Of a stretch of 64,000 bases of DNA, positions 3,491 to 63,190 are shown piece after piece (the first letter of the stretch is position 1; every line of letters begins with the position of its first letter). This stretch comes from Squalus acanthias (Eukaryota): NCBI GenBank assembly GCA_030390025.1, contig CM059432.1, forward strand, positions 18,230,001 to 18,294,000. The letters are read 5' to 3'. The notes under the pieces are model-generated. The model did no database searches and had not been told where the DNA came from. It saw nothing but the letters and a program-made list of their open reading frames with translations. The position numbers and the translations under genes are program-made.

Positions 3491-3811
3491 GAGAGGCATG
3501 CTAGTATTACTGAAAGCTCTTTGTTTTCTTCTTATATTGTGATCAATTGAATTTTCCTCAGATTTCTTTTCCAGAGTTGTGTTAAGCTCTGGGAAGCCAA
3601 AAGTGCCCTCTGCTGGTTTGTGGCCAACCCTGCAGGCTAGGGGATGGATGGCAATGATAAAAGCGGCGCAAAACGACCCACTTATCCACAGCCAGCCCAT
3701 GAGGCGATAACTGATTCTCACCCTGATTATATATCGAGTCCAGAGGCTGCTTTGCTTAATCAGGTCGATTAATGTCCAATGTGTGTTAGACAAACAGAAG
3801 ATAATTCCTAC

Positions 3812-3906
3812 AGCAACAGAAAACGCTGGAAAAACTCAGCAGGCCAGGCAACATCCGTGGAGAGAGAAACAGAGTTAACGTTTCAGGCCGAAACCCTTCG
3901 TCAGAA
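3812..3906 (-). mobile_element. Penelope pseudo-LTR fragment with a minimal hammerhead core
   Basis: Same sequence as 41960-42056. The minus strand reads CTGACGA-a-gggt-TTCG-gcct-GAAA-cgtt at about 3873-3906; stem I is truncated. Confidence 0.7.
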
Positions 3907-3942
3907 GATAATTCCTACTTTACTAAAACTGCAAAGAAATAA

Positions 3943-6418: not shown

Positions 6419-8100
6419 GGGGCTGAATTTCCTCGGCGGTTCGACCGAACTCCCGCTGGAACCACTCGGAAACAAGTCGGGACCAGCGTATGGCAGGACC
6501 CAATCTTAGTAAAGAAATCCCAATAGGCCTTGTAAAAGGTAGAGCCTCCACCTGCCCTTTACAAGGACAGCTATGTCAGAGGGCGGTGGGGCTGAGGAGG
6601 GTAAGGGCTCCTCAGCTGGATGTTCTTGCTTCCCCAGTCCATAAGGGAGACAGCGTAACACTGAAGATCAGTACGCCTAGTTCGATGAGACGTACTGACC
6701 TCCAGTATGGGGGAGAAATGGGCCCCACTGGCGAGGGCGGAGTTGCGGGGTTGGGGTCCAGGCTAAGGAAGTGGCCAAGGCCCCCCGCAAAGAACATGCA
6801 ATTCATACAGAGGCCAAGGAGGGGGGGGGGGGGCAGACTGCCTAAGATCTCCGCGTGGGTAGGGGAGGTGCTGGAGTTTCTGGAGGAGGACCTGAAAAGC
6901 GTCCACAATAACGTGGGTCCCTTCCGGACCCTTGCAAATGAGTTGCCCACCCACTGAAATGAGTTGCCCACCCACTGAAATGAGATGCCCACCCACTGAA
7001 ATGAGTTGCCCACCCACTGAAATGAGTTGCCCACCCACTGAAATGAGTTGCCCTCCCACTGAAATGAGATGCCCACCCACTGAAATGAGATGCCCACCCA
7101 CTGAAATGAGTTGCCCACCCACTGAAATGAGTTGCCCACCCACTGAAATGAGTTGCCCACCCACTGAAATGAGTTGCCCACCCACTGAAATGAGATGCCC
7201 ACCCACTGAAATGAGATGCCCACCCACTGAAATGAGATGCCCTCTCACTGAAATGAGATGCCCTCTCACTGAAATGAGATGCCCTCCCACTGAAATGAGA
7301 TGCCCTCCCACTGAAATGAGATGCCCTCCCACTGAAATGAGATGCCCTCTCACTGAAATGAGATGCCCTCCCACTGAAATGAGATGCCCTCCCACTGAAA
7401 TGAGTTGCCCACCCACTGAAATGAGATGCCCACCCACTGAAATGAGATGCCCACCCACTGAAATGAGATGCCCTCTCACTGAAATGAGATGCCCTCTCAC
7501 TGAAATGAGATGCCCTCCCACTGAAATGAGATGCCCTCCCACTGAAATGAGTTGCCCACCCACTGAAATGAGTTGCCCACCCACTGAAATGAGATGCCCT
7601 CCCACTGAAATGAGATGCCCTCCCACTGAAATGAGTTGCCCACCCACTGAAATGAGTTGCCCACCCACTGAAATGAGTTGCCCACCCACTGAAATGAGAT
7701 GCCCTCCCACTGAAATGAGATGCCCTCCCACTGAAATGAGATGCCCTCCCACTGAAATGAGATGCCCTCCCACTGAAATGAGATGCCCTCTCACTGAAAT
7801 GAGATGCCCTCCCACTGAAATGAGATGCCCTCCCACTGAAATGAGATGCCCTCTCACTGAAATGAGATGCCCTCCCACTGAAATGAGATGCCCTCTCACT
7901 GAAATGAGATGCCCTCTCACTGAAATGAGATGCCCTCCCACTGAAATGAGATGCCCTCTCACTGAAATGAGATGCCCTCTCACTGAAATGAGATGCCCTC
8001 TCACTGAACCCACAAACTCCAGTGGGGTTGGCGAGGAAGGGCATCCTCGGGCATGATCAAAGCATAAGCGCCGGGATTGCTCCCACAGATTTTCAGGGCC
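6419..8100. mobile_element. Putative Harbinger-type MITE carrying a minisatellite
   Basis: Imperfect termini GGGGCTGAATTT and ATTTTCAGGGCC with a GC-rich interior. No clear TSD. Confidence 0.45.
6936..8006. repeat. Minisatellite, 51 x 21 bp, AAATGAG(A/T)TGCCC(A/T)C(C/T)CACTG
   Basis: Exact 21-bp period with three variable positions. There are 51 heptapeptide units in the 6932-8056 translation. Confidence 0.98.
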
Positions 8101-13107: not shown

Positions 13108-13676
13108 TGATGTGGAGATGCTGGTGTTGGACTGGTTCTCCAAGGCGGCCTTTGAGACAAACGACAACGCAAAATCGTCGAGCAGAAACTGATAGCCAAG
13201 TATATCACCCATGAGGACGGCCTCAACCGGGATCTTGGGTTCATGTCACGTTACATGTAACCCCACCTGACGTAGAGTCATCCAGACTCGAGTCGTCGTT
13301 GGCTTGTTCTCTCTACACAGATGCGGCCGGACCTGCTGTAATTTCCAGCAAAAAAAGTCTTTTGTTTTCCATACAGACCCCAGCATCTGCCACATTTGAC
13401 CCCCTGTGACCCCACCTCATTGTCTTTGATGTAATGTTTTCCTGACTGACCTGTTTGGACACCATCCACACCTTTGATTGCCGTGATTATCTCTCTGCCG
13501 AGGTGTGATAAAGGGCAGTTAGAAAGATTAACTGTAATCATCTGGCAGTGTTCTCTGACTATATATGCTGTGCCTATATGCATCTCTTCACTTCACCTGA
13601 CGAAGGAGCAGCGCTCCGAAAGCTTATGATTTCAAATAAAGCTGTTGGACTGTAACCTGGTGTTGTGCGACTTCTC
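13108..13676 (+). mobile_element. Penelope-like element 3' end (GIY-YIG endonuclease C-terminus plus pseudo-LTR)
   Basis: Perfect 14-bp TSD ACATGAGGGAGAAA (13094-13107 and 13677-13690). 13135-13260 translates as VLQGGL*DKRQRKIVEQKLIAKYITHEDGLNRDLGFMSRYM*. Confidence 0.85.
13593..13629 (+). ncRNA. Minimal type I hammerhead ribozyme motif
   Basis: CTGACGA (13597-13603), a, stem II GGAGC-agc-GCTCC, GAAA, palindromic AAGCTT stem III. Stem I tcac/atga has one mismatch. Confidence 0.7.
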
Positions 13677-18737: not shown

Positions 18738-20345
18738 ATAGGAACATAGGAACAGGAGTAGGCCATTCAGCCACTTGAGCCTGTTCTGCCATTCAGTTAG
18801 ATCACAGGAGTAAAGAAGTCTTACTCTAATTATATAGGGCCTTGGTGAGACCACACCTGGAGTACTGTGTACAATTTTGGTCTCCTTACCTAAGGAAGGA
18901 TATACTTGCCATAGAGGGAGTGCAACGAAGGTTCATGAGATTGATTCCTGGGATGGCGGGACTGTCGTATGAGAAGAGATTGAGTAAAATAGGCCTGTAT
19001 TCTCTTGAATTCAGAAGAATGAGGGGATCTCATTGAAGCATACAAAATGATTACAGGGCTTGAGAGGATGGATGCCGGGAGAATGTTTCCCTTGGCTGGG
19101 GAGTCTAGAACCAGGGGCCACAGCCTCAGGATAAAGGGTAGGCCATTCAGGACTGAGATGAGAAGAAATTTCTTCACACAGAGGGTGGTGAATCTTTGGA
19201 ATTCTCTACCCCAGAGGGCTGTGGAGGCTCAGTCATTGAGTATAATCAAAACAGAAGTCGTTAGATTTCTGACTAGTAAGGGCATCAAGTGATATGGCGA
19301 TAGGGCCGGTGAATGGAGTTGAGGCAGAAGATCAGCCATGATCTCATTGAATGGCGGAGCAGGCTCGAAGGGCCGAATGGCCTACTCCTGCTCCTATTTC
19401 TTATGTTCTTATGGCTGATCTGTATCTCAACTCCCTTTGTCTGCTTTGATCTCTTGATATCCTAACCAAATTAAAAATCTTTTGATCTCAGCCTTGAAAA
19501 TTTCAATTGACTCAGCCATTTGGGGGAGAGAGTTCCAGATTTCCACCACCCTTTGTGTGGAGTAAGTGCCTCCTGATTTCAGTCCTGAATGGGCTAGCTC
19601 TAATTTTAAGATTGTGCCCCCTTGTTCTGGATTCCCCACTAGAGGAATTAGCTTCCCTCTTACTCTATTGAACCCTTTTATCATTTTAAACACCTCAATA
19701 GATCACCCCTCCACCTTCTAAACTCAAGGGAATACAACCCAAGTTCAAGCAACCTGTCCTCATAATTTTACCTTTTAAGCCTTGGGAATCTGCACTGTAC
19801 CCCCTCCAAGGCCAATACATCCTTCCTGAGATGCGGTGCCCAGACCTGAACGCAGTAGTCCCAGATGGGGTCTGACCAAGGCTCTGTAACTTCCTTCCCT
19901 TTGTATTCCAACCCTCTTAAGATGAAGGCCAACATTCTATTAGCCTTTTTGATCACTCTTTGTACCTTTGCAGTAGCTTTTAGTGATTTGTGTACCTGGA
20001 CTCCCAAATTCTTTTGCTCATCTACAGTTTCTAGTCTCACAATTAAGAAAATATTCTGATTTGCCTTTCTTGGATCCAAAGTCAATGACCTCACACTTCC
20101 CCACATTTGACTCCACAATTTTTCCCACTCACTTTATACGTCTATGTCTCATTGTAACTTACTGCTTCTATCGGCGCAACTTACTCTGCCTCCTAACTTA
20201 GTGTCATCTGCAAACCTGCATAAACAACTTCATCCAAGTCATTGATATATGTGGTGAAAAGCTGAGGGCCTAGGACACCAGGAATACCACTTGTTACACT
20301 TTATCCCTAGTCTCTTTCTCCTACCTTCCAACCAATTACCAACCC
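18738..20345 (-). mobile_element. CR1 LINE (minus) with a second CR1 (plus, ~18806-19411) inserted in its 3' UTR
   Basis: The inner copy encodes VRPHLEYCVQFWSPYLRKD. The outer copy resumes at 'atggctgatc' and shows ORF2 remnants at 19427-20118. Confidence 0.85.
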
Positions 20346-41572: not shown

Positions 41573-42020
41573 ACCAGCCAGCAAATAAGAAATAAAAGAG
41601 CAAATAGGACTGAGTGGCCAGGACTTCAAGATTTGTATTGCCCGATCCTGTGGACCATGTAAAGGTTGGGCACCCCTGCTTTATGTACGACCGCCTCAAT
41701 TCTTTTCCTCAAGTTTTCGCCCTCTTTATCTTCTGAGAGCAATGATTTATTCTGGGATACGGTTCAACGGGCGCAAGTGTCTCCCCAGTAACTCACCCCA
41801 GTGTTTATTCTCATGTTGAAGCCTTGTTAGTGAGTGCTGGCAGGTTGCTTGGGTATGGAAGGGCAACATAGCTGAGCCAAGTGGCCCAGCTTTAGTGCAA
41901 CAATGGTAACCTTGACCTATTACAATAGCAAAATACTGCGGATGCTGGAAATCTGAAATAGCAACAGAAAATGCTGGAAACACTCAGCAGGTCAGGCAGC
42001 ATCTGTGGAGAGAGAAACAG

Positions 42021-42057
42021 AGTCAACGTTTCGAGTCGGGGACCCTTCGTCAGAACT
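42021..42057 (-). ncRNA. Minimal type I hammerhead ribozyme motif
   Basis: The minus strand reads agtt-CTGACGA-a-GGGTC-ccc-GACTC-GAAA-cg-TT-gact. Confidence 0.75.
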
Positions 42058-42143
42058 GGAAAAGGTTAGAGAAGTAACAGATTTTTAAGATTTTCCTTGC
42101 CCCTGCACTTGCTTAAAAATCTGTTGCTTCTCTAAACTTTTCC

Positions 42144-42180
42144 AGTTCTGACGAAGGGTCCCTGACCCGAAACGTTGACT
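42144..42180 (+). ncRNA. Minimal type I hammerhead ribozyme motif
   Basis: agtt-CTGACGA(42148-42154)-a-GGGTC-cct-GACCC-GAAA-cg-TT-gact. Stem I agtt/gact, palindromic AACGTT stem III, predicted cut after 42176. Confidence 0.78.
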
Positions 42181-42333
42181 CTGTTTCGCTGTCCTCGACA
42201 CTGCATGACCGCCTGAGTGTTTCCAGCATTTTCCGGTGACCCTGACCTAGGTCAGCTAACTCAGCACAAGCTGAAGATCATACCTCGGACTTTCGCAGGG
42301 TGTATGTTTCAGTACCATACCAGGAGACGCATT

Positions 42334-43072
42334 GGCCCAGATTCTGCCGGACCAACAATAACGTACGCACAGCGTACGCCATCGTAAGTACTCACAAAGG
42401 CCCCGCAGGTTCCAGCTTTCCGCATACACTGCGTATATGCGAAAACCCGGAACTTGCGATCTTTCAAGTTTCTCCTTGACAAATTGCCCGCAAGCGCCCC
42501 AAAAACACTTCCGCTGGCGCATAGTGGGGCTATTTGCCCAACTACTGCCCAGCGAATGCCCTCGAAACCCTTACGCCTGATAAAAGCAGTAAGGGTTAAA
42601 ATAAATGTTAAATTAAAATTATAAAAATGATTAAAACATACAAAAACATTTAAAATTAGTTCATGTAAATTATGGGCCGGAATAAATTGTTTTTATTATT
42701 TTTCAAAACATTACATTTTTATTTTAAATGCTTAATCAAAGGGTCTTTTAATTAATTTTGATCATGGGAATATTTATTTTGATTAGAATTGTATTTTATT
42801 TGGGCATTCCTAATATGCTTATGGGGATTCCGTTCATAAATGGAATCCCCATAAGCTTATGAGGAATCCCCATTTCTAATTGGCTGGCCTGGCCTACATG
42901 ATCCCAGGGACGCTTCCGAACCGCCTGCGCCCCTGGGATCCGTGGGCCTTTGCGCCGGCGTATGCCTGGAGGCCCAGGACCCGAAGACTCCGGAGATACC
43001 AGGTACTTGGGGATTTTTTTTCGGGTCGAAGGCGTACTCCGGAGGTACGCCTCTGACCACAAATTCAGGGCC
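42334..43072. mobile_element. Harbinger-type MITE, AT-rich core
   Basis: Ends GGCCCAGATT and AAATTCAGGGCC with TSD ATT. The right arm is related to 51300-51400. Confidence 0.85.
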
Positions 43073-53486: not shown

Positions 53487-54644
53487 ATGGGGGCTGTACT
53501 AACTCGGAGCGTCGTCCTCCAGCTTCACCTTCGGAGGCTGCAGAGAGAGAGTGGCAAACGTGGCCAGAGGGAGGAGGGCCAACAGGCCTCTGCACAGGAG
53601 ACCTCACCCTCCCAGGGTATTCCGGGAGCAATTCTCCTACATTCATTTGTCCAAGGAGCAGTGTTTTAGAAGGCTGCGCTTCAGCAAGGAGGTGGTCACA
53701 GAGTTCTGCCACCTCCTGCAGTCAGACCTCCAGCCTCAGCTCAGGACCAGGACGTCTCTGTCATCACAGTGGCTCTCAATTTCTACACCAGCGGCTCCTT
53801 CCAGGCTTCAACCGAGGATCTTGCGAATATCTCCCAGTTTGCCGTCCATTGTTGCATCCGGGAGGTCACAAATGCTCTATACCAAAGGAGAAGGGAGTAC
53901 ATCTCTTTCCCCATGACCCGAGACAAACAGCGTGAACGTGCATGTGGCTTCGCTAGGATAGCGGGCTTCCCCATGGTTCAGGGCGCCATTGACTGCACGC
54001 ACGTGGCATTGCGGGCTCCTCATGAAAATGAAGAGGTTTTCCGCAACCGCAAAGGCTTCCACTCTCTCAACGTGCAGTTGGTATGCGACTACAGACAGCG
54101 CATCCGCGCCGTCAATGCTCGCTATCCTGGCAGCAGCCACGATGCATTCATCCTGCGTCAGACTGGTGTCCCAGACCTCTTTCAACCACCGCATCATCCT
54201 CGTGGCTGGCACCTCGGGGACAAGGGTTATCCACTCTGCACCTGGCTGATGACACCGCTCTGTAACCCCAACACTCCTGCTGAGCTCACCTACAATGAGA
54301 GCGATAGCGCCACCAGGAACCTCATTGAACAGACGATCGGCATGTTGAAGCAACGGTTCCGGTGTCTTGACCACTCTGGAGGAGTCCTGCAGTACTCCCC
54401 TGATAGAGTATCAGTTTTCATTGTTGTGTGCTGTATGCTTCATAACCTCGCCATTCTGAGGACCCAGCCATTGCCGCCAGGGATTGGTGTACCACCTCAG
54501 GGAGAGGAGAGGAGAGAGGAGGAGGAAGAGGCGGAGGAGGAGGATGAAGAGGAGGATGAGCAGCAGCAACGTGGGAGGGAGGCGCTCAATGTTGCTTCTG
54601 CAAGGGCCGTTCGTGAACGCCTGATAAGACACCGCTTCAGATGA
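53487..54644 (+). pseudogene. Harbinger DDE transposase; N-terminus frameshifted, 291-codon catalytic region open
   Basis: GAIDCTHV, LGDKGY and RNLIEQTIG (D-D-E) in 53769-54644. Upstream parts lie in frames 53487 and 53551. Confidence 0.92.
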
Positions 54645-62113: not shown

Positions 62114-62560
62114 AGTGACTGCCCTTGACATCAAGGCAGCATTTGGCTGAGTCTGGCATCAAGGAGCCCTAGTAAAATTGAAGTCAATGGGAATCGGGGG
62201 GGGGGGGGGAAACTCTCCACTGGCTGGAGTCATATCTAGCACAAAGGAAGATGGTTGTAGTTGTCAGAGGACAATCATCTCAGCCCCAGGCTCTCGCTGC
62301 CGGAGTTCCTCAGGGCAGTGTCCTAGGCCCAACCATCTTCAGCTGCTTCATCAATCACCTTCCCTACATCATAAGGTCAGAAGTGGGGATGTTTGCTGAT
62401 GATTGCACCGTGTTCAGTTCCATTCGCAACTCCTCCGATAATAAAGCAGTCCATGCCCGCATGCAGCAAGATCTGGACAACATTCAGGCTTGGCTGATAA
62501 ATGGCAAGTAACATTCGTGCCACACAAGTGCCAGGCAATTACAATCTTCAACAAGTGAGA
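62114..62560 (+). mobile_element. Family-B LINE RT fragment, interrupted by a CR1 5' end
   Basis: GVPQGSVLGPTIFSCFIN...MFADDCTVF. Confidence 0.88.
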
Positions 62561-63190
62561 CCAGGACCAGTGAGAGCGGTGGGGATAAAGGGAGCGGCGA
62601 CCCGAGGCTCGAGCGAGAGCGAGACCAGTGAGAGCGGTGGGGATAAAGGGAGCAGTGACCCGAGGCCCGAGACCAGAGTGAGACCGGGACCAGCGAGAGT
62701 GAGAGCAGGACCAGTGAGAGTGGTCGGGATAAAGGGAGCGGTGACCCGAGGCCCGAGACCAGAGTGAGACCGGGACCAGCGAGAGCGGTGGGGATAAAGG
62801 GAGCGGTGACCCGAGGCCCGAGACCAGAGCGAGACCAGTGAGAGCGGTGGGGATAAAGGGAGCAGTGACCCGAGGCCCGAGACCAGAGCGGGACCAGTGA
62901 GAGCGGCGGGGATAAAGGGAGCAGTGACCCGAGGCCCGAGACCAGAGTGAGACCAGTGAGAGCGGTGGGGATAAAGGGAGCGGCGACCCGAGGCCCGAGC
63001 GAGAGCGGGACCAGTGAGAGCGGTGGGGATAAAGGGAGCGGCGACCCGAGGCCCGAGCGAGAGCGGGACCAGTGAGAGCGGTGGGGATAAAGGGAGCGGT
63101 GACCCGAGGCCCGAGACCAGAGCAAGACCGGGACCAGCAAGAGCGAGAGCGAGAGCGGTGAGAGTGGTGGGGATAAAGGGAGCGGGAGCG
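62556..63190 (+). repeat. Ten ~59-bp GC-rich monomers (variants of ~64 and ~86 bp)
   Basis: Ten occurrences of GGGATAAAGGGAGC, with ACCCGAGGCCCGAG between most of them. Confidence 0.92.

Follow-up and report, generated by a model that had tools for sequence, protein, structure and literature searches.

A fold-back insertion with a minimal hammerhead motif on each strand in Squalus acanthias, probably a doubly 5'-truncated Penelope-like element

An insertion of a Penelope-like element (PLE) is typically accompanied by an adjacent inverted 5'-truncated copy, with a tail of 30–40 bp at one end only and a target-site duplication (TSD) (PMC8557442, PMC3846280; available text). Minimal hammerhead motifs occur in pairs on opposite strands, 100–700 bp apart, and it was reported that single minimal PLE hammerheads did not cleave in vitro and that dimers cleave at a low level (available part of PMC4209133). 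For an anole PLE, the accessible text of PMC11167929 describes a protein that cuts and extends both target strands in vitro and starts at two adjacent RNA sites bounding the tail. This protein is predicted to be dimeric, and insertion in vitro also proceeds with mutated hammerheads.

In this work, a fold-back unit of 315 bases (41920–42234) was analysed within a window of 64,000 nucleotides of the Squalus acanthias assembly GCA_030390025.1 (contig CM059432.1, positions 18,230,001 to 18,294,000). Contigs of four sequencing runs (of 21 listed), from organisms A, B, C and D and three studies, were compared with positions 41690–42440. We consider it very probable that the unit is a dead insertion, 5'-truncated in both halves, of an abundant PLE family, probably of cartilaginous fishes; a two-primer route is proposed for its origin.

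Anatomy of the fold-back unit and its hammerheads

In agreement with the original prediction of inverted arms around a 22-nt loop, the segment 41967–42233 aligned with its own reverse complement at 84% (blastn, E 4e-80). It is the strongest close inverted repeat of the window. The left arm (41967–42089, sense on the minus strand) and the right arm (42112–42234, plus strand) differ at 13 of 123 columns, and each is read as a 5'-truncated pLTR-like end. Read in the ribozyme sense, both have the same 3' end, facing outward. The left arm reaches about 45 nt past the end of the right arm (41920–41966, minus strand), a feature outside the original prediction. This unmatched extension represents a 3' tail present on the left end only, and the family has loose ends with diverse flanks at 41917–41927. 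The right arm is tail-less, and its end equates to about 41962–41967 of the left arm, i.e., to the second 3'-end class of the family (loose ends at 41963–41965). Also beyond what had been predicted, 9 of the 13 arm differences fall within 30 columns (p=0.009) and mark out 42188–42215 (plus strand) as a stretch of right-arm-specific changes. In this stretch the left arm and a solo family copy elsewhere in the window (3812–3906) are mostly alike and the right arm is deviant; organism A has the window's letters here, and the probable orthologue in organism B is family-like at 42188, 42199 and 42200.

The 22-nt loop between the arms (42090–42111, plus strand) begins at the putative inversion junction 42089|42090. 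It is not palindromic, and in other copies it is not the continuation of the left arm: 4 of the 32 listed contig pieces stop at 42089 and then carry 37–314 other letters, two of the four probably being one locus. The loop probably belongs to the right arm as additional 5' sequence; filler DNA is the alternative. A contig record covering 42098–42232 (run X6) seemed to confirm this assignment independently but was rejected, since its depth and a 30-letter overlap with the next record make it a probable orthologue.

The original prediction of a full hammerhead core on each strand proved correct. Each arm contains CTGACGA, one extra A, a 5-bp stem II, GAAA, C-G-U-U and a 4-bp stem I, with the cores at 42148–42176 on the plus strand and at 42053–42025 on the minus strand. 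The complete minimal type I motifs extend over 42144–42180 in the right arm (plus strand, predicted cut after 42176) and over 42021–42057 in the left arm (minus strand, predicted cut between 42025 and 42024), as delimited by a descriptor, a pairing check and the published consensus. In all 64 kb the strict descriptor matched at these two positions, and it gave no match in 30 shuffled versions of the window. Both motifs were expected to be of the minimal Penelope type, and both fit the consensus in the available part of PMC4209133, with the extra base after A9, the G10.1–C11.1 pair and the palindromic CG. The Infernal-type check that had been proposed for them gave no such result, as the Rfam search of the window returned no hammerhead at the gathering score and none among its 11 hits at E<=10. 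Nine of these 11 weak hits were generic miRNA-hairpin models below their own gathering score and were discarded. These motifs are not modelled in Rfam. We regard the hammerheads as passengers that came with the pLTR end. A hammerhead-like core of another family was seen at 13597–13625 (plus strand); in it, an extra A accompanies a 5-bp stem II and an AAGCTT palindrome, and it fails the strict descriptor at stem I.

We infer PLE identity from hallmarks and not from a linked ORF. Four of six hallmarks were found, namely the minimal hammerhead, the head-to-head 5'-truncated inverted copy, the one-ended tail with two 3'-end classes, and the target-site duplication. In the search for an RT or GIY-YIG frame linked to the arms, none of 14 candidates scored. 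The unit had been predicted to contain no ORF, and the longest ATG-started frame in 41920–42234 is indeed 38 aa. A stop-free frame of 43 codons runs from the hammerhead through the tail and is within chance (3690 of 20000 shuffles). It was rejected as coding: it retrieved no long protein, and its seven short peptide matches, one of them named from the catshark Scyliorhinus torazame, contained no Pfam families (0 of 7) and look like read-throughs of repeat copies. The catshark name counts in favour of a family of cartilaginous fishes. Five pattern scans of viral, metagenome and prokaryote collections gave no loci. In a literature search that covered mostly open-access papers and few repeat databases, no paper was found on fold-backs of this family in cartilaginous fishes.

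The family in relatives and the history of the insertion

The family of the arms is very abundant. The contigs matching 41690–42440 numbered 30959, 72881, 73822 and 64002 in the four runs, and the depth over 41924–42027 was about five orders above that of the flanks, a figure that is not a copy number. Loose ends, where copies part from the window sequence, fell at 41917–41927 or 41963–41965 in 16 of the 24 listed rows (of 1535), each with 242–1236 contigs and with mutually unrelated flanks (agreement 0.35–0.43). These two 3'-end classes of the family match the tailed and the tail-less end of the unit. The other eight listed rows lie around stem II, where most copies differ from the unit.

Other members of the family are present in the window itself. 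A solo, non-inverted, tail-less copy (3812–3906, minus strand; 88.5% over 96 nt, E 1e-29) is flanked by its own exact 17-nt direct repeat (3795–3811 and 3902–3918). It is cut just before the catalytic core, at another truncation point, and serves as an internal control; the original prediction had not noticed this copy. An older family copy lies at 13267–13350. Repeats abound in the window, which includes fragments of DDE transposases and RTs (Pfam matches in three of nine frames tested). Two related DDE_Tnp_4 transposase frames are located at 298–1161 and 53670–54641, in repeated elements which we take to be Harbinger-like. A MITE-like segment with short imperfect inverted ends occupies 42335–43071 and has internal inverted repeats at 42801–42872 and 42900–42940. 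Tandem arrays at 6936–8008 and 62554–63185 show long stop-free frames in several phases, with 63-bp offsets in 6936–8008, and an old inverted repeat of about 1 kb (64%) at 18833–19888 overlaps interspersed repeat copies.

The unit was predicted to be the product of one insertion event flanked by a 15-bp direct repeat, and both points are supported by the comparison with relatives. The repeat copies at 41905–41919 and 42235–42249 agree at 13 of 15 positions, a match equalled by 16 of 20000 random window stretches. At 41908 the flank contig reads G in all four runs, as the right copy does, and at 42242 the junction contig of organism B reads T, as the left copy does. Therefore, the repeat mismatches represent later decay of an exact duplication; both are absent from the contigs of organism B, among the 40 of 168 difference rows listed. 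Contigs of organism A cover 41690–41945 and 42178–42440 with five differences each, and those of organism B cover 41690–41947 (18 differences) and 42206–42429 (16 differences, three gaps). As these contigs run from flank to element on both sides, both junctions are present in A and B. The left-flank contigs of C and D match up to 41915 and then diverge for 31 and 28 letters, respectively, and an empty-site joint is not among the 15 of 206 joints listed. The insertion is probably absent from organisms C and D, which would then carry the empty site. The locus may therefore be usable as a presence/absence marker, since the organism of the window shares the insertion with A and B, and C and D probably lack it. 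A 14-bp palindrome is found at 42242–42255, with the right edge of the duplicated target at its centre, and the segment 42236–42287 is moderately repeated in all four runs.

Formation of the two arms

We hypothesize that the unit was formed by priming from both target strands, a proposal that draws on the in vitro data for the anole PLE in the available text of PMC11167929. A PLE RT-endonuclease, supplied in trans, would nick both target strands about 15 bp apart. Each 3' end would then prime cDNA on the element RNA, one from the tail-distal and the other from the tail-proximal start site. Both cDNAs would stop early, after about 170 and 145 nt, and the joining of the two stubs head to head would create the 15-bp duplication. 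The two-primer step is thus proposed by analogy.

The best surviving alternative is self-priming, in which one cDNA would fold back on itself and the second arm would be copied from the first, as was proposed for head-to-head PLE structures (model of PMC3846280, available text). In its favour, the two arms share minority letters against the family majority (42024/42177, 42033/42168, 42128). We regard self-priming as rather unlikely here, since the junction is without the palindrome described for rotifer cases in the same source and the tailed arm of other copies does not run on into the loop sequence. A fold-back of the tailed arm predicts a loop that prolongs the left arm, but the 4 of 32 listed pieces that leave the window sequence at exactly 42089 probably represent three loci; nor could the tail have been copied from a tail-less arm. 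If short two-armed insertions with exact ends were collected in very large numbers, counting them would separate the two-primer route from self-priming.

According to the second alternative, which is the mini-retroelement of the original prediction, the fold-back unit is itself a non-autonomous family: its hairpin would be transcribed in full, and a PLE protein would re-insert it in trans. Both ends of the unit are proper family 3' ends, and in rotifers the pLTRs suffice in cis for trans-mobilisation (PMC3846280, available text). In run X6 another short head-to-head joint, from 41941 to 42165, has a depth of 154 against about 10 in its flanks (about 14 times); it may reflect renewed copying of a fold-back, or else a position within a different repeat. 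Moreover, 6 of the 15 listed joints connect a tailed end (41917–41927) with a tail-less end (41955–41965), tail to tail, which is what tandem units would yield. Against such a family, at least eight distinct left-to-right-arm joints were found among the listed joints (15 of 206) and inserts (12 of 167); all eight differ mutually and from 42089|42090, and three of the eight, flagged as having an undefined sequence between, may not be short fold-backs. The junction 42089|42090 was crossed by none of the 32 listed pieces (of 245954), a weak count given that repeats break contigs. In organism A the depth at 42199 is 15.4, in one contig, so the present right arm is not amplified there, and at 42191 this copy's letter occurs in only about 28 of 763. 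The tail-to-tail joints comprise up to 22 contigs (run X10), each near single-copy depth (about 8–17), and the template would be a hairpin of -204 kcal/mol. We therefore judge a non-autonomous family to be improbable, and the junction 42089|42090 is likelier to be unique to this locus. The retrozyme-like family that the original prediction considered, on condition that the unit recurs, is accordingly not supported, given hammerheads on opposite strands, a junction that none of the listed pieces crosses and eight other joints. Similarly, there is little likelihood that fold-back stubs are re-copied in trans as non-coding hairpin units with one tailed and one tail-less end, sometimes in tandem, which would make them a retro-counterpart of MITEs.

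In the two-strand priming proposal, the tail-to-tail joints are possibly a second outcome of the same process, tandem units being the other option. We tentatively suggest, with more doubt than confidence, that the strict pairing of tailed with tail-less ends, both head to head and tail to tail, is a genome-scale record of two-strand PLE priming. The tail-to-tail joints and the head-to-head stubs are a family-level lead and may allow a test of the mechanism by counting in a full assembly.

A third alternative, that two independent insertions or a later inversion joined two stubs, is very improbable: the family is very abundant, PLEs insert beside other copies (PMC6765202, available text) and the right arm has its private mutation cluster, but a single duplication brackets the whole unit with none inside, the minority variants are common to both arms, and in A and B neither junction is found without the other.

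The remaining question concerns the RNA. For the plus strand the computed fold has -204 kcal/mol (z -20.8), a stability reached by none of 100 shuffles. With the arms head to head, the antisense arm is transcribed first on both strands. The forced ribozyme fold reached -139.5 against -204.0 kcal/mol on the plus strand and -139.1 against -204.9 kcal/mol on the minus strand, a computed penalty of about 65 kcal/mol on either strand. For RNA starting at 41905 the pair probability of stem II is 0.0, and it increases only when the RNA begins at about 42060 or beyond; the active hammerhead fold is thus computed to be inaccessible in a full read-through transcript. A forced hammerhead dimer had -15.7 kcal/mol against -29.7 for the minimum-energy cofold. 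Each strand carries one hammerhead, with no same-strand tandem, and no direct repeat of the unit was seen nearby in the self-comparison of the window. As no strand has two cut sites, neither a cis dimer nor a circle is expected. The predicted switch between a hairpin (off) and a ribozyme (on) finds no support in these calculations, given the order of the arms in the transcript and the much lower stability of the ribozyme fold, and read-through RNA would be an inert long hairpin. An exapted RNA under selection, acting as such a switch or as a siRNA source, is extremely improbable: A, B and the window's organism all retain the insertion, and both catalytic cores are intact in the window, but the energy penalty, the unpaired stem II in read-through RNA and the lack of in vitro cleavage by single PLE hammerheads (PMC4209133, available part) stand against it. 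In B, the probable orthologous piece of the right arm has differences at 16 of 135 sites, no lower a share than in the flank contigs (18 of 258 and 16 of about 221), with no constraint seen.

Comparison with known systems

The animal non-LTR retrozymes, as described in the available text of PMC7229834 and bioRxiv 10.64898/2026.07.22.740005, resemble the fold-back unit in being non-coding, about 300 bp long and PLE-related, with a type I hammerhead and a long TSD. They consist of same-strand tandem repeats with a hammerhead per unit and form circular RNA, whereas the present unit is inverted and has one minimal hammerhead per strand. The arrangement by which non-LTR retrozymes are recognised, at least two same-strand tandem hammerhead units, is absent from the fold-back unit. 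In the twin-priming of L1, a second primer from the other target strand produces an inverted truncated insertion within one TSD, as in the unit. On the other hand, the second primer in L1 is internal and the arms are not duplicates, whereas both arms of the fold-back unit have the same 3' end.

The hammerheads share with the minimal motifs of metazoan PLEs the type I topology, the 4-bp helix I, the extra base after A9 and the G10.1–C11.1 pair, as well as no helix III beyond the palindromic CG, a U-rich 5' side and dual motifs on opposite strands about 100 bp apart (PMC4209133, available part). They differ from them in a helix II of 5 bp with a 3-nt loop and in the cleavage triplet GUU. No cartilaginous fish was found in the available part of supplement file 2 of that paper.

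The closest likeness is to the endonuclease-bearing PLEs (Penelope/Poseidon, Neptune, Nematis). The TSD of the unit is 15 bp, compared with 8–10 bp in the rotifer PLE examples (PMC3846280, available text), and its tail of about 42–46 nt is slightly longer than the 30–40 published for PLEs. Its junction is also non-palindromic, unlike that of the rotifer elements, and the unit retains no ORF, the protein being required for assignment to a clade. As a single locus it is of minor importance, and there is no sign of a new self-copying element. With its head-to-head inverted ends, unequal arms, one-ended tail and one TSD around the whole unit, all of which are described for endonuclease-bearing PLEs in the available literature, the fold-back insertion is a clean example of an already described pattern.
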